This document shows, in pieces, positions 40,069 through 53,034 of a stretch of 64,000 nucleotides of DNA. The translations under genes were made by a program, and so were the position numbers. The notes under the pieces were generated by a model, which saw nothing but the letters and a program-made list of their open reading frames with translations, was not told where the DNA came from and searched no databases. The DNA comes from Gordonia sp. (in: high G+C Gram-positive bacteria) (GTDB taxonomy: Bacteria; Actinomycetota; Actinomycetes; Mycobacteriales; Mycobacteriaceae): assembly GCF_047600385.1 (NCBI RefSeq), contig NZ_JASGKZ010000002.1, positions 84,217 to 148,216 of the forward strand, in the 5' to 3' direction. Numbering within the stretch: position 1 is the first letter of the stretch; every line of letters begins with the position of its first letter.

Positions 40069-40446
40069 TCACAGGAGTTCCACGTGGCAACGTGTCCCCG
40101 GAGCCCGAGCGAGGCGGGCATCGACCGTCAACAGCGATTCGACATCGAGCGCTTCGGCGAGCGCCACATAGGCCGCGTCGTATGCAGACAAGTTGTGCCG
40201 GAGTTCCCAGACACGCGGCCGAAGCCAGTCCATGGGGTACCGACTGATGTCCATGCCCAAGAAGCCGATCATCGCATCGTTCGCCTGCGCCGACGTCAAC
40301 TGCTGCCGACGCTCCAATGTTCGCAGAGCACTGATCACCTCACAGTCGATCAGGTGGGGCGCCGCCAGCGGAGCTTCCCCCAGCGACTCCGGAGCGAGAC
40401 CTCCCACCAGAAGTTGCACGATCGCACCGGCGTCAATGACCTTCAC
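40069..40446 (-). CDS. vapC: VapC PIN-domain toxin
   Basis: [22 protein letters not shown] acidic tetrad; GTGA overlap with the antitoxin. Confidence 0.9.
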
Positions 40447-40685
40447 TCTCGCCTGTCCGCCTGTAGCGCCGACAAGATGGTCTCGGAATCGAGGGCGGCG
40501 CCCACCGCAACCTGGGTCGCCCGCACCACTTCCGCGTTGCGTCTGACTGATTCCGAGCGCCCGGCGAGCGCTGCGAGTTCCCTTCGCAAAAACTCCGAGA
40601 GAGACAGACCTCGCGCTTGCGCAGCACGCGACAGCGCCTCGTGCGTGGCATCCGGCAGCCCTCGGACCTGAACAACCCTGCTCAT
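40443..40685 (-). CDS. vapB: VapB/FitA-like ribbon-helix-helix antitoxin
   Basis: VQVRGLPDATHEAL...GLSLSEFLRREL, upstream of vapC. Confidence 0.85.
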   Translation of the reverse strand: MSRVVQVRGLPDATHEALSRAAQARGLSLSEFLRRELAALAGRSESVRRNAEVVRATQVAVGAALDSETILSALQADRRE

Positions 40686-40775
40686 ACCTGGACACTACCG
40701 ACCCTGCATGCACAATGCACCCACTTCCGACTTGAACATGCCATTAAGATCAGAACTTGCGCCCCACACGATCAC

Positions 40776-40853
40776 GGGCGCAATCCCCAACCAGGGATGA
40801 TCCGTAGTTTCTTGTGATCGGACACCTGCTCCCCGCCACGGCGGGGGTCGCGG
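40776..40853 (+). ncRNA. CRISPR-derived mini-array / crRNA-like RNA (degenerate repeat, 21-nt spacer, degenerate repeat)
   Basis: psiR1 40776-40803 ends GGGATGATCC (9/10 to the repeat 3' end); spacer TAGTTTCTTGTGATCGGACAC 40805-40825; psiR2 TGCTCCCCGC-CACG-GCGGGG keeps the full 6-bp hairpin. Confidence 0.75.
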
Positions 40854-40889
40854 CCGGGTCACACATCAGGGCCCGGCCGCAACCTTTTC
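40850..40889 (+). terminator. Terminator after the mini-array
   Basis: GCGGCCGGGTC/GGCCCGGCCGC stem followed by AACCTTTT. Confidence 0.75.
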
Positions 40890-41028
40890 ACCATTAAATC
40901 ATATAAATCTCAAACTAGTTACTAGTTATTGGAAGGATCCTTTCCGACCCTGATGTTGGCACCAAATCGCCTCCCACAAAGTCATCCAGAACTCGGTTCG
41001 TATCCGGTATTGTTCGTGGTCAGCAAGT
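40890..41028 (+). promoter_or_regulatory. AT-rich promoter/leader of CRISPR array 1
   Basis: ATTAAATCATATAAATCTCAAACTAGTT in a high-GC background; ends GGTCAGCAAGT before the first repeat. Confidence 0.7.
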
Positions 41029-42449
41029 GTGCTCCCCGCGCGAGCGGGGATGTTCCGAGCTGGCCGAACGCGCCGATTTGCTGTCCCCGGTGCTCCCCGC
41101 GCGAGCGGGGATGTTCCGAGGTCCTGGTCGTTGGGGGTCGGGCCGATCGCGTGCTCCCCGCGCGAGCGGGGATGTTCCCTCGGCCTCGAGGCCCCCCGCG
41201 AATGGCCCAAAGTGCTCCCCGCGCGAGCGGGGATGTTCCCGTCGACCCGGTGCGCCCCCCGATCGAAGAGAGGTGCTCCCCGCGCGAGCGGGGATGTTCC
41301 CCGCAGGACCGGGTAAGAAGCCTGGTTTCCGCGGTGCTCCCCGCGCGAGCGGGGATGTTCCCACCCCGTCCTCTTGCTCGTCCTGGCCGCTACTGTGCTC
41401 CCCGCGCGAGCGGGGATGTTCCCATCGTCGCGTTCCCGGGCGGGGACGTCGACGAGTGTTCCCCGCGCGAGCGGGGATGTTCCCATCTTCCGCAGCCGGG
41501 AGATCACCTCGTCCATGTGCTCCCCGCGCGAGCGGGGATGTTCCCGGCTGCGTGCGGGTGCAGTTGTCGCAATGCAGGTGCTCCCCGCGCGAGCGGGGAT
41601 GTTCCCCTGGCAGGAAATGACGGGGCGATGTGGCACGTGTGCTCCCCGCGCGAGCGGGGATGTTCCCAATACCCTTGTGGGTTGGGAGTGCGGATTAAGG
41701 TGCTCCCCGCGCGAGCGGGGATGTTCCCGCATACGGCAGACCGGCGCGGTCACGGCAGAAGTGCTCCCCGCGCGAGCGGGGATGTTCCCCAGGCCGGCTG
41801 ATCGTTGATCCCGAAGATCCCGTGCTCCCCGCGCGAGCGGGGATGTTCCGGCGGGGCGCGCGCTCTCGGCGAAGAACGAGGCGTGCTCCCCGCGCGAGCG
41901 GGGATGTTCCCAGTCCGCCGGTGGTGGACTGGAAGCAGGGCATGTGCTCCCCGCGCGAGCGGGGATGTTCCCAGGCCGCCCTGGCCGGCGCCTGGTTGAC
42001 GTGCGTGCTCCCCGCGCGAGCGGGGATGTTCCTCTGGCCTGACGGCATCCACTACAAGACCGATGCGTGCTCCCCGCGCGAGCGGGGATGTTCCCGAACT
42101 TCGCATGCGACCGCGTCGTACGAATGTGTGCTCCCCGCGCGAGCGGGGATTTTCCATCCTTGTTGTCCATCAGCCACGCCTTTATGGCGGGCTCCCCGCG
42201 CGAGCGGGGATGTTCCCGCGAGGCTCACTGGAGCGGCCCGTCGATCGGCGTGCTCCCCGCGCAAGCGGGGATGTTCCCGATTTGCCGCTCGGTTTCCGCA
42301 TGGGCTACGCGTGCTCCCCGCGCGAGCGGGGATGTTCCCTTCGGCAAGCCCGGATCGACCGCGCCGCCCAGGTGCTCCCCGCGCGAGCGGGGATGTTCCG
42401 TATTCTCTTGCGATCGGACACTTGCTCCCCGCCACAGCAGGGAGCGCGG
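41029..42449 (+). CRISPR. Type I-E CRISPR array 1: 23 repeats GTGCTCCCCGCGCGAGCGGGGATGTTCC, 22 spacers of 33-34 nt, plus a short terminal spacer and a degenerate repeat
   Basis: Repeats at 61-bp period from 41029 to 42372; degenerate TTGCTCCCCGCCACAGCAGGGAG at 42422. Confidence 0.98.
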
Positions 42450-42480
42450 TCGGACCACGACTCGGGGCCGACCGCAACCT
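42446..42480 (+). terminator. Terminator after array 1
   Basis: GCGGTCGG/CCGACCGC stem followed by AACCT. Confidence 0.65.
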
Positions 42481-42484
42481 CCCA

Positions 42485-42554
42485 GTCATCCATTCATACT
42501 AATATTTAACTAGTTGCTTGTAATTGATGGATACTCACCCATACCATTTCGAGT
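42485..42554 (+). promoter_or_regulatory. cas operon promoter region, containing AAC-TAGTTGCTTGT target site
   Basis: AT-rich; candidate -10 TAATAT at 42500-42505; site 42508-42526 matches the mini-array spacer. Confidence 0.7.
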
Positions 42555-45353
42555 ATGACCCCGATTACACATCCGCCCTACGACAACCCGACCCTCATCG
42601 CCGAGTTGTCTGCCGCGGCGCGTGTACTGTGGGCCAAGTCTGACTACCTCGAGGGCATCGACTGGCTGCCCCTTTACCAGCACATCGCCGACTCCGCCGC
42701 GGTCGCGGGCACACTCTGGGACGAGTTCCTCCCGTCCGCGACCCAGCGCGTCGTCGCGGACGCGTTCGACGGCGATCACGCCCTCGCTCGGAAGATCGCG
42801 GTGTGGCTCGCTGCCAGTCACGACCTCGGGAAGGCGACACCGGCCTTCACCCAGCAGGTCGATCGACTCCGCGAAGAGGTGGAGCAGACCGGGCTCCCCA
42901 TCCGCGCCAACGCCCTCGGGCGCAACAGGGACCTCCCCCACTCCGCGGCGGGATTCCAGATCCTGAAACGCTGGCTGAAGCAGGAGCACGGGTTCAAACC
43001 CAGATTCGCCGCGATGTACGCGTGCATCCCCCTCGGCCATCACGGCTCGTTCCACGCCCCCGCACCCGAGCACGACAGTCTCGACTCCCCACTCCTCGGC
43101 GATTGCGCACAGTGGCATGAGGTGCAGCACGAACTCACCCGATTCGCCGCCGCGACCGCCGGAATGACCGACGCCGATTTCGCGCTGATCGCCGGTCGTC
43201 CGCTGCCGCAGCCCGCCGCCATCATCCTGACCGCGCTGACGATCCAGTCCGACTGGATCGCCTCCAACACGGGCTTCTTCCCGTTGCGCAGCACCCCGCG
43301 CGAGCCCGATGCCGCGGCCGAGGCGATGGCCGCGCTACGACTGCCACCACCGTGGAAGGCCGCTGTACCAGACGATGCCCGACTCTTCTCCGATCATCTC
43401 GGGCTCGCCGATCCAAGGCCGCTCCAGACCGGCCTCGTCGACCTCGCCCGGACGCTCCCCCGTCCCGAACTCATGATTCTCGAGGCGCCGACCGGGGAAG
43501 GAAAGACCAAGGCCGCCCTCGGCGCGAGCGAGGTGCTGGCTACGAGATTCGACCTGGGCGGAGTGCTGTTCGCACTGCCGACGCAAGCGACCTCGGACGG
43601 CATCTTCAGCACCGTCCACGAGTGGCTGCGGACGGCGGGCGGATCGACCGACGTCTCGCTGGCCCTGGCACACGGTAAAGCACAGTTCAACGCCGAGTAC
43701 ACGGCGATCAAGGATCTCCGGCTGTCACCGATCGACGATCCCGACGGCCACGGCGGCATCGTCGCCCACTGGTTCCTCACCGGACGCGGCAAGCTCGCGA
43801 CGACGTCCGACTTCGTCGTCGGCACCATCGACCAGCTCCTCCTCGGTGCTCTCCGCGCCAAGCACGTCGTCCTCCGGCACCTCGGCGTCGCGGGCAAGGT
43901 CGTGGTCATCGACGAGGTCCATGCCGCCGATGCGTTCATGCGCCGATACCTGTGCCGCATGCTCACCTGGCTGGCCGTGTACGACGTTCCGGTGATCGCG
44001 ATGTCGGCCACGCTGACTCCGTCGATCCGGAACGAGCTGATCGGCGCGTACAACGAGGGCCGCGGGCGGCCGGCGCCACGACCTGAGGACGATGAGGCGA
44101 TCGTCTACCCGCGGATCACCTGGTCCACCGACGACGGAGCCGCCGTGGTGGCCCTGCCCGCGTCGTCGCGCACCTCGACGCTCACGGTCTCCGAACTCTC
44201 CGGGTCGACCGAGGACATCAGCGCCGCGGCACTTGCCGCGGCCCGCGATGGAGGTAACGTCGCGGTCGTCTGCAACACCGTGCGCCGAGCTCAGGACGTC
44301 TACCGTTTCCTGAACACCGAGGCCGCTCAGGACATGGACACGATGCTCCTCCACTCGCGGTTCCTCACTCCGGATCGCATGGACAAGGAGCAGGACCTTC
44401 GACGCAGACTCGGTCCCGACTCCACGCACGACGATGCGGCCCGCCCGCTGATCGTCGTGGCGACGCAGGTCATCGAGCAGTCGTTGGACATCGATTTCGA
44501 TGTCATGTTCAGCGACATCGCACCCGTCGACCTGCTCATTCAGCGTGCGGGACGTCTGCATCGTCACTCGTGGAAAGACGAACGACGTCCCCGTGAACAC
44601 CGCACCGCACAGCTGACCCTCACCGGTTTCACCCGGAACGCCGACGGTCCGCCGACCCTGGATCGAGGTTGCCGGGCCGTCTACGGCGCATCCGCGCTCC
44701 TGCGCGCGATCGCCACGCTCGACGAGCATCTCCGCGACCACGAGGTGCTGACCAGTCCCGGAGACGTCGCACCTCTCGTGACCCGGGCCTACGAGACGAT
44801 CACACCGCCGGCCGGATGGGAGGAAACGTGGCGGAACGCCGACGAGAAGGCTCGGAAGTCGAGCGCCGATCAGAAGCAACGCGCCGACACCTTCCGGATA
44901 CCTCCGCCCGGGACGAAGTCCCTGGTCGAATGGGATTCCCAGTCAGTCGGGGATCCGAGCGGCGAGCGGGGCGCAGCACAGGTCCGAGACGGCGAGGACT
45001 CCATCGAAGTGGTCGTCGTGCAGCGGATCAACGGCCGCCGGGTGATCCCGACCTGGGCACACGAGTACCCGGATGAATCGGTCGATCTCGCCACCGTCAC
45101 CGACGATCACTTCGCCCTGGCGGCATCGAAGAACACGCTCCGTCTTCCCGGGTTCCTCGGTTCGGACGGACTCGGCGATCAACTGATCGACGAGTTGGAA
45201 GACGACTGCATCGACACATGGCAGAACTCGCGCTGGCTTCGCGGCGCCCTGCCGCTCGTCCTCGACGAGAACGGGGATGCCACACACGCGGGATTCGATT
45301 TCCACTACGACACCGACCTCGGTCTCGTCGTCACCACCTCGGAGGAGAAATGA
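42555..45353 (+). CDS. cas3: CRISPR-associated helicase/endonuclease Cas3
   Basis: HDLGKA (HD), APTGEGKT, DEVH, MSAT, QRAGRLHRH. Confidence 0.97.
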   Translation: MTPITHPPYDNPTLIAELSAAARVLWAKSDYLEGIDWLPLYQHIADSAAVAGTLWDEFLPSATQRVVADAFDGDHALARKIAVWLAASHDLGKATPAFTQQVDRLREEVEQTGLPIRANALGRNRDLPHSAAGFQILKRWLKQEHGFKPRFAAMYACIPLGHHGSFHAPAPEHDSLDSPLLGDCAQWHEVQHELTRFAAATAGMTDADFALIAGRPLPQPAAIILTALTIQSDWIASNTGFFPLRSTPREPDAAAEAMAALRLPPPWKAAVPDDARLFSDHLGLADPRPLQTGLVDLARTLPRPELMILEAPTGEGKTKAALGASEVLATRFDLGGVLFALPTQATSDGIFSTVHEWLRTAGGSTDVSLALAHGKAQFNAEYTAIKDLRLSPIDDPDGHGGIVAHWFLTGRGKLATTSDFVVGTIDQLLLGALRAKHVVLRHLGVAGKVVVIDEVHAADAFMRRYLCRMLTWLAVYDVPVIAMSATLTPSIRNELIGAYNEGRGRPAPRPEDDEAIVYPRITWSTDDGAAVVALPASSRTSTLTVSELSGSTEDISAAALAAARDGGNVAVVCNTVRRAQDVYRFLNTEAAQDMDTMLLHSRFLTPDRMDKEQDLRRRLGPDSTHDDAARPLIVVATQVIEQSLDIDFDVMFSDIAPVDLLIQRAGRLHRHSWKDERRPREHRTAQLTLTGFTRNADGPPTLDRGCRAVYGASALLRAIATLDEHLRDHEVLTSPGDVAPLVTRAYETITPPAGWEETWRNADEKARKSSADQKQRADTFRIPPPGTKSLVEWDSQSVGDPSGERGAAQVRDGEDSIEVVVVQRINGRRVIPTWAHEYPDESVDLATVTDDHFALAASKNTLRLPGFLGSDGLGDQLIDELEDDCIDTWQNSRWLRGALPLVLDENGDATHAGFDFHYDTDLGLVVTTSEEK

Positions 45354-46945
45354 GCACACCGTCCTTCAACCTCGTCGACGAACCGTGGATCAGCGTGCGA
45401 TCGACCGATCGCCGATCCGCTCTCGTCTCACTGCGCGAACTCTTTCATCGCGCGCCCACGATCCGCCGCATCGCCGGTGAACTGCCGACCCAGGACTTCG
45501 CCGTTCTCCGCATCGCTCTGGCGGTGATGTACCGGGCGCTGGACACCGACGAGAACGTCGACGAGATCTGGGAGTCGGGAACCCTGCCGCTCGACGAGAT
45601 CGACGAGTACCTCGACCGATGGCACCACCGGTTCGACCTGTTCGACGGCGAGCACCCGTTCATGCAGGTCGCCGGACTCAAGAGCGTCTCGGGCGATACC
45701 AAGCCGCTCGGCATCCTCATGCCGGACTCCCCCGGTCCCGGGCATCTGTTCACCATGCGACACGACATCGAATCGGTGTCCTTCGCCGAAGCGGCCCGGT
45801 GGCTGGTGCACTGCCAGGCGTACGACTTCGACGGGATCAAGACCGGGGCGCTCGACGATCCTCGTACAAAAGGCGGCAAAGGTTATCCGGTCGGTATCGG
45901 CTGGGCGGGTTGGCTCGGCGGCCTCTATCTCGAAGGCCACGATCTACGCGAGACCCTGCTGCACAATTGGGTACCGTCCAGAGAGAGCGAGCAGCGTCGG
46001 GACGACCTCGCACTCTGGGAACTCGATCCACTCACCCCGGCTCCCCGCGACCTCGCGGAGATCGGGCCATTCGGGCCAGCGGGGCTGTTCACCTGGCCAA
46101 TCCGACACATCCGACTGATTCCCGGTGACGGCCGGGTAAACCGTGTACTGATCTGCATTGGCGATCCGGTCGCGAAAGCCGTCCAGATGCAGAACGAACC
46201 CATGACATCATGGCGGTACAGCGATCCACAGACGAAGAAAGAGAAGTCCTCGACTCCGCTGTACATGCCACGCAAACACGACCCGACATGGGCACTGTGG
46301 CGAGGACTCGCCTCGCTCCTCCCGACGACGGAACCACCGACGGATACCAAGGGCATCGTCTCGGCACACCCTTCGATGGTCGTCTCACGACTCGCCGAGC
46401 GCATCGCCGAAGACAAGCTCCCGAATCGGTTAGTCGCTCTGGTCTCAGTGGGCGTCGAGTACGGATCCCAGATGTCGACGTACTCCCAGATCTTTAGCGA
46501 CAACCTGGTAGTCCATCCCACCATCGCAAAGGCCGAAGGTGCAGCCCGAGCATGCGTCGTCGACGCTATCAAACGAACCTATGACGCGGTCTCTGCACTC
46601 TCTGGACTAGCCGGAGACCTTGCCGTCACCGACGGCGGCAAACGACCGGAAGCCGCGGAACGTGCCCGAGCCACCGCCTATGCCGCACTTGATCAGCACT
46701 TCCGTGCATGGGTTCAGTATGTCGGCGATCATCGAGACACCAGCGAATTGTCGAACGCCTGGTACGGCATGGCGACCGATGTGCTCTCCGCCCTCGCCGA
46801 TACTCTGCTCGATTCCGCATCGCCGCGGTCCCGGGCGGTCCGAATCGTCGACGGGCATCCGGTCTCGGCCGGCCAGGCGGCGAACTGGTTCCGCTACAAC
46901 CTCTCCAAACATCTTCCGGTCACGCGAAAGGACACAGCGATATGA
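45350..46945 (+). CDS. cse1: Type I-E Cse1/CasA (Cas8e)
   Basis: FNLVDEPWI, RFDLFD..HPFMQV, EPMTSWR; operon position. Confidence 0.93.
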   Translation: MSTPSFNLVDEPWISVRSTDRRSALVSLRELFHRAPTIRRIAGELPTQDFAVLRIALAVMYRALDTDENVDEIWESGTLPLDEIDEYLDRWHHRFDLFDGEHPFMQVAGLKSVSGDTKPLGILMPDSPGPGHLFTMRHDIESVSFAEAARWLVHCQAYDFDGIKTGALDDPRTKGGKGYPVGIGWAGWLGGLYLEGHDLRETLLHNWVPSRESEQRRDDLALWELDPLTPAPRDLAEIGPFGPAGLFTWPIRHIRLIPGDGRVNRVLICIGDPVAKAVQMQNEPMTSWRYSDPQTKKEKSSTPLYMPRKHDPTWALWRGLASLLPTTEPPTDTKGIVSAHPSMVVSRLAERIAEDKLPNRLVALVSVGVEYGSQMSTYSQIFSDNLVVHPTIAKAEGAARACVVDAIKRTYDAVSALSGLAGDLAVTDGGKRPEAAERARATAYAALDQHFRAWVQYVGDHRDTSELSNAWYGMATDVLSALADTLLDSASPRSRAVRIVDGHPVSAGQAANWFRYNLSKHLPVTRKDTAI

Positions 46946-47586
46946 CCGCCACCAGCGAGAACCCCACCAGGCAGGGGATCAATGCGCATGTGGACCGCAG
47001 GGCCCGCGAACTCTTCAAAGGGATGCGGGGAAACAACGGCGCGGCGATCGGCGCCCTCGCCAAGCTGCGGCGTGCCGCGACGTCGGACATCGGGGAGGAC
47101 CCCGCCGCCTGGCAGGTCGCGTTCCTCGGATTCGGTGATCGCACATCGGACGATCTTCCGTTCCCGACCGCACAGGAGACGGGCGTCTACCTGGCGCTCA
47201 CCACGTTCGCTCTCCATCAGCAGTCGAAGAACGAGTCCATGCACGTCGACGGACCGTCCCTCGGTACCGCGCTGAACCGGCTCGCACACGCCGGCGGAGG
47301 AGCCGACGGCCCGAGTGAACCGGTGATCCGCCGGTTCAACGCACTCGTCACTGCCGACTCGGACGAGGAGACGCGCTGGCATCTCCGCAGTCTGATCGGT
47401 CAGCTCCGCGCTCGCAGTATCGAGCTCGACTACGGCCGACTGGCCGACGACCTCGCCGCCCTCGCGGGCCGAACCCGGAAGGGCGAGAACGAAGGCGCGG
47501 CGCGGCGCCGGGTCCAGTTGCAGTGGTCCCGCGATTTCAGCAGAACCCCGAAGACCGCCGACCCGTCGGCGACCACGAACGACTGA
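46942..47586 (+). CDS. cse2: Type I-E Cse2/CasB (Cas11)
   Basis: LAKLRRA, LTTFALHQQS, RRFNAL, LDYGRLADDL. Confidence 0.93.
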   Translation: MTATSENPTRQGINAHVDRRARELFKGMRGNNGAAIGALAKLRRAATSDIGEDPAAWQVAFLGFGDRTSDDLPFPTAQETGVYLALTTFALHQQSKNESMHVDGPSLGTALNRLAHAGGGADGPSEPVIRRFNALVTADSDEETRWHLRSLIGQLRARSIELDYGRLADDLAALAGRTRKGENEGAARRRVQLQWSRDFSRTPKTADPSATTND

Positions 47587-47617
47587 CCTTTTCCACCTCG
47601 AACACCAGGAGTACCTC

Positions 47618-48730
47618 ATGTCCCTCTTCATCGACCTCCACGCCATTCAGTCCGTCCCGCCGTCGAACATCAACCGCGACGAGGACGGCAGCCCCAAGAG
47701 CACCACGTTCGGCGGCACCCGGCGTGCTCGCGTGTCGAGCCAGGCATGGAAACGGGCCATGCGCAACGACTTCGCCGATCACCTCGACGACTCCGAACTC
47801 GGTGTCCGGACGCTCCGTATGGTCGACCAGATCGCCGCGCGTATCACCACTCTCGATGCCGCGATCGACGGCGATGCCGCTCAGCAACGTGCCACCGAGG
47901 TGCTCACCGCGACCGGAATCAAGGTCGAGAAGGTGAAGCCGCGTAAGAACGACGAGAACCAGGACGAGTACTCGAAGACCGGCGCCCTGCTGTTCCTCAG
48001 CAACCCGCAGATCGACGCGCTCGCCGAGTTGGCGGTCACCACCGTCGGCAAGATCGACAGGAAGGCGGCGAAGGCCGTCCTGTCCAAGGGAAATTCGATC
48101 GATCTCGCCCTGTTCGGCCGGATGATCGCCGACGCGCCCGACCACAACGTCGACGCCGCGGCACAGGTGGCGCACGCGCTCGGCACACACGCCGTCGTAC
48201 CCGAGTTCGACTACTTCACCGCGGTCGACGACAAGCAGTCCGACGACAACGCCGGCGCCGGGATGATCGGGACCGTAGAATTCAACACCGCCACGCTTTA
48301 CCGTTACGCCACGGTGAACGTGTCCGTACTAGAAAAGAATCTCGGTGATCCCGAGGCCGTCGCACGCGGCGTCGAGGCGTTCGTCCGGGCGTTCATCACG
48401 TCGATGCCGACCGGCAAACGCAACACGTTCGCGAACAAGACCCTTCCGTCGTTCGTGCTCGTCACTGTACGCACGGACCAGCCGATCAACTTCGCCGGGG
48501 CGTTCGAGGAGGCCGTCGATCCGAAGCAGGGGCTGACCACCGTGTCGATCAAGGAACTGCTCGGTGAAGCGACCCGCACGTACACGGCGTTCGATGCCGC
48601 ACCGGCCGCGTCGTACGCGGTCACCTCCCGGGCCGTCGACGGCCTCGACGAAGTCGCCGCCACGCTGTCTCTCAGGGATCTGGTGACCACGCTCGGCGAC
48701 GAGACCCGCGCCCGGCTCGGGGCAAGCTGA
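47618..48730 (+). CDS. cas7e: Cas7e (CasC/Cse4)
   Basis: SNINRDEDGSPK, RVSSQAWKRA, DLALFGRMIAD, DYFTAVDD, GAGMIG. Confidence 0.96.
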   Translation: MSLFIDLHAIQSVPPSNINRDEDGSPKSTTFGGTRRARVSSQAWKRAMRNDFADHLDDSELGVRTLRMVDQIAARITTLDAAIDGDAAQQRATEVLTATGIKVEKVKPRKNDENQDEYSKTGALLFLSNPQIDALAELAVTTVGKIDRKAAKAVLSKGNSIDLALFGRMIADAPDHNVDAAAQVAHALGTHAVVPEFDYFTAVDDKQSDDNAGAGMIGTVEFNTATLYRYATVNVSVLEKNLGDPEAVARGVEAFVRAFITSMPTGKRNTFANKTLPSFVLVTVRTDQPINFAGAFEEAVDPKQGLTTVSIKELLGEATRTYTAFDAAPAASYAVTSRAVDGLDEVAATLSLRDLVTTLGDETRARLGAS

Positions 48731-49434
48731 TGACGACGCTCCTGCTGAATCTCGCGGCGCCGCAACAGGCGTGGGGGGATTCGAGCCGCTTCACCCAGCG
48801 CCAGACACGACCCGAACCCACCAAGAGCGGCATCGTGGGACTGCTCGCGGCCGCTCTGGGCCGTCGCCGCACCGATCCGATCGAGGACCTCGCCGGACTC
48901 ACCTTCGGAGTCCGGACGGACCAGGCGGGGACGCTGGAACGGGATTTTCAGACCGAGATCGACTGGCGGACCGGGAAATCGCGGGCACTGACACACCGCT
49001 ACTACCTCGCCGACGCCAAGTTCGTCGCCGCCGTCGGCGGCGACGAGGATCTGCTCCACGGCCTCGTCGAGGCACTGATCAATCCCACGTTCCCGCTGTT
49101 CCTCGGCCGGCGGGCCTTTCCTCCCGCGGGTCCTCTCCGCGGAACGCTCGTCGACGACGATGTGCCGTCTGCGCTGAAGAATGCTCCGTGGACTGCGAGC
49201 CCACGGCATCGTCGTGCCCAGGCCGGTCACGTGAGTCTGCCGATCGTCCGAGACGCCGGCCCTGAAGACGACCGGATCGCCGAGTCGATCCGAGATCATC
49301 CGGTCAGTTTCGATCCGGATGCCCGCCGATACGAATGGCGGGACGTGGTGCACGACATCGTGCGGATCGACAACCCCGATTCGCAATGTCCGGCGTCCCG
49401 GCCCGACTGGCTCGCCGCACTGGGAGGTAGCTGA
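48730..49434 (+). CDS. cas5e: Cas5e (CasD)
   Basis: LAAPQQAWG, PTKSGIVGLLAAALG, YLADA, FLGRR. Confidence 0.95.
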   Translation: MTTLLLNLAAPQQAWGDSSRFTQRQTRPEPTKSGIVGLLAAALGRRRTDPIEDLAGLTFGVRTDQAGTLERDFQTEIDWRTGKSRALTHRYYLADAKFVAAVGGDEDLLHGLVEALINPTFPLFLGRRAFPPAGPLRGTLVDDDVPSALKNAPWTASPRHRRAQAGHVSLPIVRDAGPEDDRIAESIRDHPVSFDPDARRYEWRDVVHDIVRIDNPDSQCPASRPDWLAALGGS

Positions 49435-50118
49435 ATGTACATGTCCAGAATCGCTCTGAATCGGCGACGGCGCGGGGCGATGAAGCTGCTCGGCAACCGT
49501 CACGCGATGCACGCCGCGGTCATGTCGGCGTTTCCTCCCGGAACGACGACGGAGAGCGCCGAAGGTCGCGTGCTGTGGAGAATCGACCGGCACGGCAGGG
49601 ATGACATCGAGCTCCTCGTCGTCAGTCCAGCGGAACCGTGTCTCGCACACATCAACGACCAGGCCGGCTGGTCGACCGGATCCGCCTGGGCGACCAGGGA
49701 CTACGACACTTTTCTCCAGTCGATCTCCGCGGGTCACGAGTACGTCTTCCGGCTCACCGCCAACCCGACGCACCGCGTGTCGATCCCCACCGACGACGGG
49801 GTGCGCAAGCGGATCGTCGGCCACGTGACCGACGGGCACCAGCGTCGCTGGTTCCTCGACCGTGCGGAGACGAACGGCTTCAGCGTCGTGGAGAGTTCGT
49901 CGAGTTCCGAGGACGAATCACGGTCGGAGCTGATCCTCACCGACCGTGACACAGCGGTGTTCAACCGTTCAGGTCGGCGGGTGACCCTGCAGACCGCGTC
50001 GTTCGAGGGCCGCCTGAACGTCGAAGACCCGGACCTTCTCCGCCACGCGTTGACCCACGGAATCGGACGTGCCAAAGGGTACGGCTGTGGTCTGCTGACA
50101 CTGCTGCCGGTGGACTGA
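49435..50118 (+). CDS. cas6e: Cas6e (CasE/Cse3)
   Basis: LWRID, FRLTANP, GIGRAKGYGCGLL. Confidence 0.95.
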   Translation: MYMSRIALNRRRRGAMKLLGNRHAMHAAVMSAFPPGTTTESAEGRVLWRIDRHGRDDIELLVVSPAEPCLAHINDQAGWSTGSAWATRDYDTFLQSISAGHEYVFRLTANPTHRVSIPTDDGVRKRIVGHVTDGHQRRWFLDRAETNGFSVVESSSSSEDESRSELILTDRDTAVFNRSGRRVTLQTASFEGRLNVEDPDLLRHALTHGIGRAKGYGCGLLTLLPVD

Positions 50119-51098
50119 TGGCCGAGATCCCCGGAGTCCGTCCGGCGCGTCCCAGCGAGCTGGTCCGTGTTCAAGACCGGCTCTCGTTCATCTACGTCGA
50201 GCGGGCGACGATCGGACGTGACGACAGCGCGATCACCGCCACCGACGACTCCGGTGTCATCCATATTCCAGCGGCCTCACTCGGAGCGCTTCTGCTCGGA
50301 CCGGGGACTCGTGTCACCCACCAGGCGATGTTGTTGATGGCGGACAGCGGTTCGACCGCGGTCTGGGTCGGCGAACGCGGTGTTCGGTATTACGCACACG
50401 GTCGGCCGCTCGGCCGCACATCCCGTCTGCTCGACGCACAGGCACGCGCGGTGTCGAACACCCGGGAACGCATCGCCGTCGCGCGCGCCATGTACGAGAT
50501 GCGGTTTCCGGGTGAAGACGTGTCCGAGTGCTCGATGCAGCAACTCCGAGGACGCGAGGGCGCACGCGTGCGCGGCCTCTATCGAACGCATTCGACCCGC
50601 ACCGGCGTCGAATGGAATCGGCGGGATTACGACCCGGCGGACTTCGCCGCCTCCGACATCATCAACCAGGCACTGTCCGCCGCACACACCTGTCTCTACG
50701 GTGTGGTCCATTCCGTCGTCGTCGCACTCGGATGCAGCCCCGGACTCGGTTTCGTCCACACCGGCCACGATCGATCGTTCGTGTACGACATCGCAGATCT
50801 CTATAAAGCCGAGATCACGATCCCCGTCGCCTTCGATGTCGCCGAGATGATGGCACGTGAGGAGATTCCCGACGACGACGTCGGCGGAATCACCCGCCGC
50901 GCGGTCCGGGATGCCGTGAAGTCCGGTGCGACCTTGACGCGCTGTGTTCGCGACATCCACCGCCTCCTTCTCCCCGAGGAGAAGGGCAGCGACACACAAG
51001 CGGACTACGCGGATGTGATCGAACTGTGGGATGACCGCCACGACAACGTCGTGGGTGGGACCAATTTCGCACCCGAAGACGAGGACCCGTCATGGTAG
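50118..51098 (+). CDS. cas1e: Type I-E Cas1
   Basis: LGPGTRVTH, QQLRGREGARV, GFVHTG, FVYDIADLYK. Confidence 0.96.
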   Translation: MAEIPGVRPARPSELVRVQDRLSFIYVERATIGRDDSAITATDDSGVIHIPAASLGALLLGPGTRVTHQAMLLMADSGSTAVWVGERGVRYYAHGRPLGRTSRLLDAQARAVSNTRERIAVARAMYEMRFPGEDVSECSMQQLRGREGARVRGLYRTHSTRTGVEWNRRDYDPADFAASDIINQALSAAHTCLYGVVHSVVVALGCSPGLGFVHTGHDRSFVYDIADLYKAEITIPVAFDVAEMMAREEIPDDDVGGITRRAVRDAVKSGATLTRCVRDIHRLLLPEEKGSDTQADYADVIELWDDRHDNVVGGTNFAPEDEDPSW

Positions 51099-51436
51099 TA
51101 GTCGTGCTCACGAGTTGTCCCGCGAAGCTTCGCGGACACCTGACCCGATGGCTGTTGGAGATCAGCGCCGGCGTGTATGTCGGCCATGTACCAGCACGTG
51201 TTCGCGACCTTCTCTGGATCCAGGTCGTCGAGTACGTGCAGGACGGCAAAGCGATCATGGTCCATACCGCCGCGGGCGAACAACGGCTGACGTTCCGCAC
51301 TCACCGACATGAGTGGGAGCCGGTGGACCTCGACGGCATCACCCTCATGCGGAGACCTACCGACAACGCGGTCACTCGTGGTCGGGTACGGAAAGGCTGG
51401 AGCACCGCGGCTCAGCGTCGCCGCCGTAGGTCATGA
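51092..51436 (+). CDS. cas2e: Type I-E Cas2
   Basis: LRGHLTRWLLEISAGVYVG, DLDGITL. Confidence 0.94.
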   Translation: MVVVVLTSCPAKLRGHLTRWLLEISAGVYVGHVPARVRDLLWIQVVEYVQDGKAIMVHTAAGEQRLTFRTHRHEWEPVDLDGITLMRRPTDNAVTRGRVRKGWSTAAQRRRRRS

Positions 51437-51535
51437 ACGACTCACGAACGTAGTTACGTGGTATCAAGGCAGGTACCACTCACAGAAGTCATTCTAATTT
51501 CATCTCATGTGAAGTATTCTTCCTGTTCAGGAAGA
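51437..51535 (+). promoter_or_regulatory. Leader of CRISPR array 2
   Basis: AT-rich 99 bp between the cas2 stop and the first repeat. Confidence 0.75.
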
Positions 51536-52955
51536 GTGTTCCCCGCGCGAGCGGGGATGTTCCCAAATCTGACAGTACACCGGTGTCGGTTTTTGCGTGT
51601 TCCCCGCGCGAGCGGGGATGTTCCCTACGCCGCCCTGTCCCGGTGGGCGCACCAACGGTGTTCCCCGCGCGAGCGGGGATGTTCCCGAAGCCGGCTACGC
51701 CCCGAATCCGCAGCTGCTGTGTTCCCCGCGCGAGCGGGGATGTTCCCCCCTCCGGGGAAGCTGGTTCTCGCAGCTTCCGTGTTCCCCGCGCGAGCGGGGA
51801 TGTTCCGGACGGGCGGCGAATCGTCTGCTGCCTGGAGGCGTGTTCCCCGCGCGAGCGGGGATGTTCCCACGAAGTCGCCCTGCGGAGTCTCCCGCTTCCG
51901 GTGTTCCCCGCGCGAGCGGGGATGTTCCGTAGCAGACGAGCATGGGTGCGGCACCGAGGTCGTGTTCCCCGCGCGAGCGGGGATGTTCCGTCGTCTATGG
52001 CCGTGTCGGGCTTTTCTTCTAGGTGTTCCCCGCGCGAGCGGGGATGTTCCGAACCGCACCATGATCGGCGGTGTCCTCGCTGTGTGTTCCCCGCGCGAGC
52101 GGGGATGTTCCCTCGCGGTTCACTTCCATCCCCGACAGCGTCCGGTGTTCCCCGCGCGAGCGGGGATGTTCCCGTCAGCACCACCCGATCCCCGTCGGCG
52201 GCGGTGTGTTCCCCGCGCGAGCGGGGATGTTCCCTTCACCGTCACCCTGCTCGTCCCGGGCGAACTGTGTTCCCCGCGCGAGCGGGGATGTTCCCGGATC
52301 GTCACCACCGGCGGCGGACGCAGCGCGGTGTTCCCCGCGCGAGCGGGGATGTTCCCAGGTTGGCGATCGGTCCGAGGATCGCGCCGAGGTGTTCCCCGCG
52401 CGAGCGGGGATGTTCCCCAGGTGGTTTTCGTCGCGATCAGCACGATGACGTGTTCCCCGCGCGAGCGGGGATGTTCCTGCCTCGCTCCCGGCGTCGCGGA
52501 GGCGGAGGCCGTGTTCCCCGCGCGAGCGGGGATGTTCCCAGGACGACCTCGAAGCCGTCGTAGATCGACACGTGTTCCCCGCGCGAGCGGGGATGTTCCC
52601 GCAGTACAGCTACGTCTTCCTCTGCGACGAGTGTGTTCCCCGCGCGAGCGGGGATGTTCCCCACGCCTGGTGGAACAGGCCACCGCCGGATGGGTGTTCC
52701 CCGCGCGAGCGGGGATGTTCCCCTGTCGGCGGGGACGATCACGATCGCTGAGACGTGTTCCCCGCGCGAGCGGGGATGTTCCCATCGTCGGCGCGCTGCG
52801 CTACTACGTCGGCCGGTGTTCCCCGCGCGAGCGGGGATGTTCCCATGGACACGGCGCTGGAGGTGCGAGCGCTGGAGTGTTCCCCGCGCAAGCGGGGATG
52901 TGTTGGCCGATCCAGGCGTGGCCGTGTGTGTTCCCCGCGCGAGCGGGGATGTTCC
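51536..52955 (+). CRISPR. Type I-E CRISPR array 2: 24 repeats GTGTTCCCCGCGCGAGCGGGGATGTTCC, 23 spacers
   Basis: 61-bp period from 51536; one 60-bp unit (51719) and one 51-bp unit (52877). Confidence 0.98.
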
Positions 52956-53034
52956 TGTTGGATCGCGGTGCGACACAAGCCGCCACTGCCACCGGGGATT
53001 TACTGTCGGCACCGGAAGCGGTGACCAGGTAAGA

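Follow-up and report, generated by a model that had tools for sequence, protein, structure and literature searches.

[quoted passage not shown] Copy A (40776-40880) stands alone and is predicted to be a working repressor, its spacer being a functional guide to the cas3 promoter. Copy B (spacer, psiR2 hairpin and terminator-like hairpin at 42401-42475) is fused to the end of a CRISPR array and is probably a disarmed relic, a “dud” last crRNA. The CreR kind of regulator is already known; what appears new here is a Gordonia member of it with an unusual array-fused paralog that is probably inactive.

Type I-E locus and its two arrays

The window, meaning the whole 64,000-nt stretch of DNA that was analysed, is part of a 373-kb contig, the smaller of the two in an assembly of 4.28 Mb that is 99.9% complete. 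NCBIfam matches place a complete type I-E CRISPR-Cas system at 40.7-53.0 kb, with the cas genes bracketed by two arrays that are both on the plus strand. Neither a second CRISPR locus nor a third copy of the cassette was found in the genome, and Rfam gave no match across 40500-42700. All Cas3 loci related to the Cas3 of the window belong to Gordonia.

40069..40685, minus strand: vapBC-like toxin-antitoxin pair (Pfam), the conserved left neighbour of the CreR unit
40069-40446, minus strand: PIN toxin (Pfam)
40443-40685, minus strand: FitA-like RHH antitoxin (Pfam)
40933..41029, plus strand: leader of array 1, between a promoter copy and the first repeat
41030..42400, plus strand: CRISPR array 1, 23 type I-E repeats (GTGCTCCCCGCGCGAGCGGGGATGTTCCC) and 22 full-length spacers
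42555..51436, plus strand: cas3-cse1-cse2-cas7-cas5-cas6e-cas1-cas2, type I-E (NCBIfam matches, ORF coordinates)
42555-45353, plus strand: cas3, with its ATG at 42555
51535-52954, plus strand: CRISPR array 2

The reading frames from cas3 to cas2 abut or overlap, which is consistent with a single operon. Repeats of array 1 are in an orientation that we take to be that of the E. coli I-E repeat, and since an AT-rich leader lies upstream and mutated repeats are found at 42.1-42.3 kb, array 1 is read from left to right and ends at copy B. The proximal ~65 nt of its leader are homologous to the leader of array 2 and to that of a relative (G027), including a AAAGTCAT motif, and on this homology they are a genuine CRISPR leader. 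At its 3' end, array 2 has decayed repeats and no mini-array cassette.

Copy A and its match in the cas3 promoter

Copy A occupies the interval between the vapBC-like pair and the leader of array 1, and its guide has a counterpart in the promoter of cas3.

40776..40804, plus strand: psiR1 of copy A, a degenerate repeat in which the 5'-handle ATGATCCG is kept
40805..40825, plus strand: spacer A (psiS), 21 nt, TAGTTTCTTGTGATCGGACAC, with a seed match to the cas3 promoter
40826..40849, plus strand: psiR2 of copy A, 3'-handle hairpin CCCCGC-CACG-GCGGGG, folding at -14.0 kcal/mol
40850..40880, plus strand: terminator-like hairpin of copy A, stem GCGGCCGGG/CCCGGCCGC, followed by AACCUUUU
40913..40932, plus strand: operator-like site, AAC + TAGTTACTAGTTATTGG, in the promoter copy 5' of the array 1 leader
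42508..42531, plus strand: cas3-promoter operator, AAC PAM at 42508-42510 and then the protospacer-like site TAGTTGCTTGTAATTG

The operator begins 45 nt upstream of the cas3 ATG. Seed positions 1-5 and 7-11 of spacer A match 42511-42521 exactly, further pairing occurs at positions 13, 14 and 16, and none is found beyond. In the 4.28-Mb genome this is the sole 10/10 gapped-seed match of spacer A, itself aside. The cas3-promoter copy upstream of array 1 holds the operator-like site at 40913..40932, which agrees with the seed of spacer A at nine of ten positions (mismatch at position 9); as a consequence of the origin proposed below, this promoter copy with its operator-like site would drive array 1. 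Beyond the cas3 and array 1 promoters, there were no seed matches to spacer A or spacer B.

Among the features that mark a CreR, repeat-like sequences surround a spacer-like sequence at the cas locus in both copies, and both have an 8-nt 5'-handle (ATGATCCG in A, ATGTTCCG in B) together with a 3'-handle hairpin. Copy A has PAM-flanked seed complementarity in a cas promoter (10/10, AAC), and the complementarity is partial, as the sequence of a guide that binds without cutting should be. For copy B, no PAM-flanked seed site was found in a cas promoter.

Stand-alone units in Gordonia relatives

The regions upstream of cas3 were compared across 11 Gordonia species genomes with a related Cas3 and two closer Logan contigs (L216 and L218), which are the closest relatives, with Cas3 73% and 71% identical. 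A stand-alone unit composed of psiR1, a 32-nt spacer, psiR2 and a GC hairpin lies 5' of cas3 in nine of the 11 genomes and in both contigs, and the GGGATGATCC(G/A) end of the copy A psiR1 is also found in the stand-alone units of six relatives. In every unit-bearing locus, 9-10 of the 10 seed positions of the spacer match a site that lies 45-113 nt upstream of cas3 (nine genomes scored by script; the two Logan contigs, 9/10 each, read by eye). As PAM flank, seven loci have AAC, two have AAT, one has AAA and one has TAC.

The seeds themselves vary by species (TAGGT, TAGGC, TGGAT, TGGGT, GTTGT, GCAGC, AGTGA, TAGTT), and the promoter site has followed the guide seed from one Gordonia species to the next. 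Positions 13-17 often pair as well, with pairing ending near 17, whereas almost all combinations of guide and site have mismatches at 6 and 12. Because Cascade flips out every sixth base, these near-constant mismatches are a Cascade signature; unpaired sixth positions have also been described for mini-arrays (PMC10120712). Since the split from the lineage of G101, whose spacer is the closest among the relatives, spacer A and the operator have changed jointly at positions 9 and 11, which marks the pair formed by spacer A and its operator as the one under selection.

In L216 and L218, vapBC (PIN plus FitA-like RHH), CreR and cas3 lie within 200-520 bp and are free of any array. In two other genomes (G027 and G033) an array is found upstream of a separate CreR, and array and CreR are thus often neighbours. 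A scan upstream of cas3 in 44 loci that are more distant found no array-fused CreR; in one inspected locus (L040) the array ends 150 nt upstream of cas3 with no fused CreR. Among the loci examined, the fused state was seen in the source genome only. Searches of genomes, metagenomes and protein databases gave no strain nearer than 73% Cas3 identity.

Copy B is a paralog of copy A

The preliminary description had proposed that array 1 ends in a paralog of the mini-array cassette, that the regulatory cassette was duplicated and that the array took the place of psiR1. All three points hold. Block 42390-42526 aligns with 40794-40932 at 103 of 139 positions without large gaps, the alignment supports duplication over spacer, hairpin, terminator and promoter, and copy B has a true array repeat where copy A and all relatives have psiR1.

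42372..42400, plus strand: last true repeat of array 1, in the place of psiR1 for copy B, 5'-handle ATGTTCCG
42401..42421, plus strand: spacer B, 21 nt, TATTCTCTTGCGATCGGACAC, paralog of spacer A
42422..42445, plus strand: psiR2 of copy B, a hairpin with an internal C.A mismatch and an extended base
42446..42475, plus strand: terminator-like hairpin of copy B, stem GCGGTCGG/CCGACCGC, without a U-tract

Identity between the copies is 10/11 in the 5' handle, 18/21 in the spacer, 20/25 in psiR2 and 16/20 in PAM plus operator. As had been described, the two spacers differ solely at positions 3, 5 and 11 and are identical from 12 to 21; across the 24 nt formed by spacer positions 12-21 and the start of psiR2 there is one difference between A and B. 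The conserved 24-mer occurs just twice in the genome, and a metagenome scan for it gave no match. Both copies have a 21-nt spacer where all relatives have 32 nt, which makes A and B recent paralogs. With TAG at positions 1-3 in spacer A and seven relatives, and TAGTT in G101 as in spacer A, the derived bases at positions 3 and 5 are those of spacer B. The three bases private to spacer B (3, 5 and 11) are also precisely the ones that mismatch the cas3 operator, and two of them fall within seed positions 1-5.

The structural elements of copy B have been maintained. Its psiR2 hairpin folds at -12.8 to -14.3 kcal/mol (-14.0 in copy A); two of its changes lengthen or strengthen the base of the stem, and total stability is unchanged relative to copy A. 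The stems of stand-alone psiR2 elements are all uninterrupted, with six or seven pairs in twelve of them and five in L100, and among the 13 hairpins examined the internal C.A mismatch is found in copy B only. In the terminator stems, the compensatory change reported earlier is seen as one double pair-preserving substitution (C-G to U-A), with the hairpin maintained and the loops unlike at ~5/12 positions. A terminator consensus scan called neither hairpin, A nor B; both fold and both are strong. Tail-less terminators are common in actinobacteria. The terminator-like hairpin of copy B is followed by AACCUCCC. Downstream of the hairpin come AACC and an AT-rich stretch with AAC-TAGTTGCTTGTAATTG.

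This alignment also bears on whether the end of array 1 is an ordinary one, a truncated old spacer with a degenerate last repeat that resembles the mini-array by coincidence. Degenerate terminal repeats are usual, and array 2 likewise ends in decayed repeats. An ordinary terminal unit would hold a full-length foreign spacer, and in copy B the homology to copy A runs another 100 nt past a 21-nt spacer. As the 139-nt homology spans spacer, hairpin, terminator and promoter, with the conserved 24-mer present just twice in the genome and the end of array 2 free of the cassette, a coincidental likeness is ruled out by the alignment and we give it next to no probability.

One part of the earlier account did not survive, namely that substitutions are concentrated in the seed. 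All three spacer changes fall within positions 1-11 with P = 0.12, and within the ten pairing seed positions with P = 0.09; across classes of positions the clustering gives P = 0.09-0.22 and is not significant, so that it is no more than chance would give. The spacers are in fact 86% identical compared with 74% for the whole block, so that they are slightly better conserved, and the single difference in 24 nt is not what pure decay would predict.

Searches for a target of spacer B

The genome was scanned on both strands, both exactly and with seed weighting, the seed being positions 1-5 and 7-11. Besides spacer B itself, there was no 10/10 seed match to spacer B in the 4.28 Mb, in promoters or elsewhere. 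At 9/10 there were 21 matches, compared with a background of 22 for spacer A once its own two operator-like sites are excluded; the few that were inspected lie in coding or low-GC island sequence, and one is AAG-flanked, which is about the chance expectation. The earlier remark that the window has no TATTC-N-CTTGC site is upheld and can be extended to the whole genome.

It had also been suggested that copy B works at the array end as a regulatory guide to some new target, for example a toxin promoter, and the genomic scan gives this no support. In a wider form of the idea, copy B would guide to a target outside the assembly or by non-canonical pairing, at a toxin promoter (CreTA-like addiction), on a mobile element, or at the cas promoter of a related CRISPR-Cas system entering the cell. 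Phage multi-spacer regulatory arrays do aim at varied cas promoters (bioRxiv 10.1101/2024.10.29.618823), toxin-antitoxin genes are enriched beside mini-arrays (PMC10120712), and vapBC adjoins copy A. However, the vapBC promoter has no seed match to spacer A or B, so that neither guide has a target in the adjacent toxin promoter, and none of the operators of 11 relatives resembles the TATTC-N-CTTGC seed. In a genus search over 92 Gordonia genomes including the source genome, the 91 others gave three matches to spacer B, all within a conserved polymerase gene and with a CTG flank. IMG/VR, phage and plasmid collections yielded no credible target, the matches there being at chance level and in unrelated, low-GC or foreign hosts. 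We regard a target of this kind as highly improbable. Of the two outcomes that the preliminary description left side by side, new target or decay, decay is the better supported, as the bases private to B break its operator pairing, and the new target is not.

Origin of the array-fused copy

Copy A keeps the vapBC flank and a psiR1 of the family type, copy B keeps the cas3 flank, and the switch from array-type to CreR-type sequence falls within a common ...TCCG. As L216 and L218 have no intervening array, array 1 and the second copy of the unit represent a lineage-specific insertion. The proposed series of events would start with an 11-nt deletion in the guide (32 to 21 nt). A block of leader plus array 1 would then have entered between CreR and the cas3 promoter, accompanied by a duplication of ~140-150 bp comprising guide, hairpin, terminator and promoter. 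The insertion was probably mediated by recombination through repeat-like sequence.

A tandem duplication that included the leader was also considered and rejected: leader 1 is unlike the sequence 5' of the copy A psiR1 and unlike the 5' end of cas3, and it resembles leader 2.

Proposed roles of the two copies

For both copies, processing, Cascade loading, repression and termination are predicted from the elements described above. The RNA of copy A would consist of the 8-nt handle, the 21-nt guide and the hairpin, and it is presumably loaded into Cascade. The complex would then bind the AAC-flanked operator (42508-42526) within the cas3 promoter, and with pairing ending at about position 16, transcription of the cas3-cas2 operon would be blocked and Cas3 would not be recruited for cutting.

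Copy B, on the reading that it is a relic, would form the final unit of the array 1 transcript, preceded by a true repeat, and may receive Cas6e processing on its 5' side like any crRNA. The substitutions at positions 3, 5 and 11 would have removed its pairing with the operator, and it has no other genomic seed match. Its psiR2 hairpin would close the last array unit, and its GC hairpin would stop array transcripts from running into the cas3 promoter, thereby insulating the CreR-controlled promoter. The retained stability of the copy B hairpin could mean that selection continues to maintain the RNA as a substrate of Cascade.

Loss of pairing in copy B may have been selected instead of neutral, with the hairpins kept, since a repressor borne on an array would invert CreR logic: normally more crRNA displaces CreR and de-represses cas, whereas a repressor guide made from the array would rise with the crRNA supply. 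All three changes are at operator-pairing positions, hairpin stability and terminator are kept, array 1 sits behind a cas3-promoter copy with an operator-like site, and in type I-E crRNA and CreR are known to compete for Cas proteins (bioRxiv 10.1101/2023.03.10.532045). The lack of significant clustering in the seed argues against selection, as does the number of changes, since three per 21 nt is what the surrounding 74% identity would lead one to expect. We therefore consider selected disarming rather unlikely.

The residual pairing of spacer B with the operator allows a further role. At positions 1, 2, 4, 7-10, 13, 14 and 16 it could still pair (10/15 within 1-17) next to an AAC PAM, so that copy B might weakly repress transcription from the cas3 promoter, from that of array 1 or from both, in a low-affinity feedback that reports array 1 transcription. 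Copy B would equal every other array 1 crRNA in amount, and its hairpin is retained. Two of its mismatches, however, are within seed positions 1-5, and in E. coli type I-E single seed mismatches already strongly lower Cascade binding. The relatives, moreover, keep their seeds at 9-10/10. Weak repression by copy B is quite improbable on this evidence.

It is likewise unlikely that copy B forms part of a rewired circuit in which spacer A governs the supply of both crRNA and Cas proteins, with B disarmed by selection or retuned to low affinity. Array 1 would here lie behind a CreR-controlled copy of the cas3 promoter, and its transcription would then proceed without extra repression through copy B.

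Implications

Autorepression of cas genes by crRNA-like RNAs is a recent discovery, and the Gordonia family offers a clean comparative proof of principle: in the nine species genomes and the two Logan contigs that have the unit, eleven loci in all, the guides vary and the promoter sites follow. In copy B, a guide appears to have been duplicated and fused to a real array, after which the operator match was lost while the psiR2 hairpin and the terminator-like hairpin persisted. Short “spacers” at the ends of arrays may accordingly be regulator fossils and should not be taken for immune memory. The arrangement suggests that mini-arrays and array ends exchange, as Shmakov et al. proposed (PMC10120712). 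Were the rewired circuit true, the locus would be a natural example of interconversion between mini-array and array end, with divergence of operator and guide after duplication. If copy B were active it would, to our knowledge, be the first regulatory guide in a canonical type I-E array, but the evidence points the opposite way.

Comparison with known systems

CreR mini-arrays are known from types I-E, I-B and V-A, and for I-E experiments have established that such an RNA represses a cas promoter through Cascade (Liu et al., bioRxiv 10.1101/2023.03.10.532045). The Gordonia cassette shares with them a spacer-like sequence enclosed by two degenerate repeats beside cas genes, the 5'-handle kept in psiR1 and a hairpin in psiR2, as well as the partial, seed-centred and PAM-flanked complementarity to a cas promoter, and copy A and the Gordonia relatives agree with CreR in all of these sequence features. 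The differences lie in placement and detail. The unit in Gordonia is 5' of cas3 and targets the promoter of the cas3-to-cas2 operon, whereas that of Salmonella and E. coli acts on P_casA from a place between cas3 and casA; the PAM is AAC or AAT compared with AAG; the spacer in the source genome is cut to 21 nt; and copy B is the last unit of a 23-repeat array, with a true repeat for psiR1 and without the target that a CreR has.

The mini-arrays directed at cas promoters in the survey of Shmakov et al. (PMC10120712) are similar in that their repeat-like sequences are enriched beside cas3 in I-E loci, with every sixth position unpaired and the target downstream of the mini-array. Direct homology between the terminal unit of an array and a mini-array, as found here, sets the Gordonia locus apart from these. 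Synteny with the relatives makes the mini-array ancestral and the array-terminal copy derived, which is the reverse of the direction proposed in that survey (PMC10120712).

In CreTA (Li et al. 2021, as cited in bioRxiv 10.1101/2023.03.10.532045), the CreA RNA represses a small toxin gene. The likeness consists of a crRNA-like RNA with partial complementarity that brings Cascade to a promoter for repression, with a toxin-antitoxin pair (vapBC here) adjacent. The Gordonia locus departs from CreTA in that no toxin promoter has a seed match to A or B, and vapBC is a protein toxin-antitoxin pair with its own antitoxin.

Array 1 resembles an ordinary array in closing with a degenerate last repeat (psiR2 of B). 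It is unlike one in that the last “spacer” is 21 nt long instead of 32, is homologous to a CreR guide and is not foreign-derived, and in that a conserved terminator-like hairpin and a promoter copy follow this “spacer”. The phage Cracr arrays (bioRxiv 10.1101/2024.10.29.618823), finally, also hold several regulatory guides per array and, in I-E, a short psiS (24 nt). Mobile elements encode them, and their matches are to cas or creT promoters of the host, whereas copy B is chromosomal or replicon-borne, lies beside its own cas genes and matches nothing.

Conservation of the CreR unit in Gordonia

Of the 11 Gordonia genomes with this Cas3, nine keep a stand-alone CreR unit, the Cas-regulating RNA mini-array, upstream of cas3, as do two Logan contigs, L216 and L218, the closest relatives of the present locus. 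The features of this region are as follows.

40069-40685, minus strand: vapBC pair (PIN and FitA-like RHH proteins); L216 2160-2540, L218 177-877
40689-40716, plus strand: sigma-70-like consensus match, TGGACA-16-CACAAT
40776-40880: copy A, the stand-alone CreR unit, compared with relatives L095-L106, L216 and L218
42508-42526: operator in the cas3 promoter, compared with the same relatives

Across the 11 Gordonia CreR loci compared, the promoter operator and the guide seed (positions 1-5 and 7-11) covary, and guide positions 6 and 12 are mismatched with the operator in nearly all Gordonia CreR loci. These loci form a comparative data set on type I-E autorepression that is ready to use. In Gordonia defluvii (L036, L099 and L107), the unit is decayed about 200 nt upstream of cas3; the remnant keeps a repeat-like end, GCAGGGATCTTCCG, together with TAGGTGTGCGG, and the second hairpin repeat is absent from the unit before cas3. 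A promoter site matching the G. defluvii guide was not found, the top seed score being 7/10.

Flanking genes, arrays and replicon

To the left of the CreR unit, vapBC is kept in this genome and in L216 and L218, and its promoter is matched by neither guide (spacer A or spacer B, the latter from the paralog ending array 1). The sigma-70-like match, the sole one in 40600-42700, is a candidate promoter for the CreR RNA. It lies about 60 nt upstream of the copy A psiR1 and overlaps the region where the divergent vapB begins.

The array 1 promoter copy contains AAC-TAGTTACTAGT (40913-40932), which agrees with spacer A at 9 of 10 seed positions, and the array 2 leader contains TAGTTACGTGG behind ACG (51451-51465), which agrees at 8 of 10. 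These sites before the arrays suggest that CreR may act on array 1 transcription too. At the array 2 terminus (52875-52990), where a CreR-like cassette is absent, the penultimate repeat is truncated, GTGTTCCCCGCGCAAGCGGGGATGT, and a 51-nt period is followed by one further repeat and a decayed trace, CACCGGGGATTTAC.

The sole CRISPR-Cas locus of this genome is on the smaller of its two contigs (373,081 bp), possibly a megaplasmid or second replicon, with GC content similar to that of the main contig (0.693 vs 0.698).

A possibly similar arrangement in a distant I-E clade

Lactobacillus delbrueckii-type I-E loci were also observed (L045, L046, L120, L122, L124, L126, L134 and L168). In these, GAGGATACTGTG comes after a repeat-like end, GGGGGTGACCCT, and two sites, GAAT/GAAC-GAGGA(A/T)ACTGTA, lie farther downstream, still upstream of cas3.

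About -515, -367 and -273 relative to cas3: repeat-like unit and two sites

With its two operator-like sites, this arrangement resembles a CreR unit, in this case from a distant clade of I-E systems.
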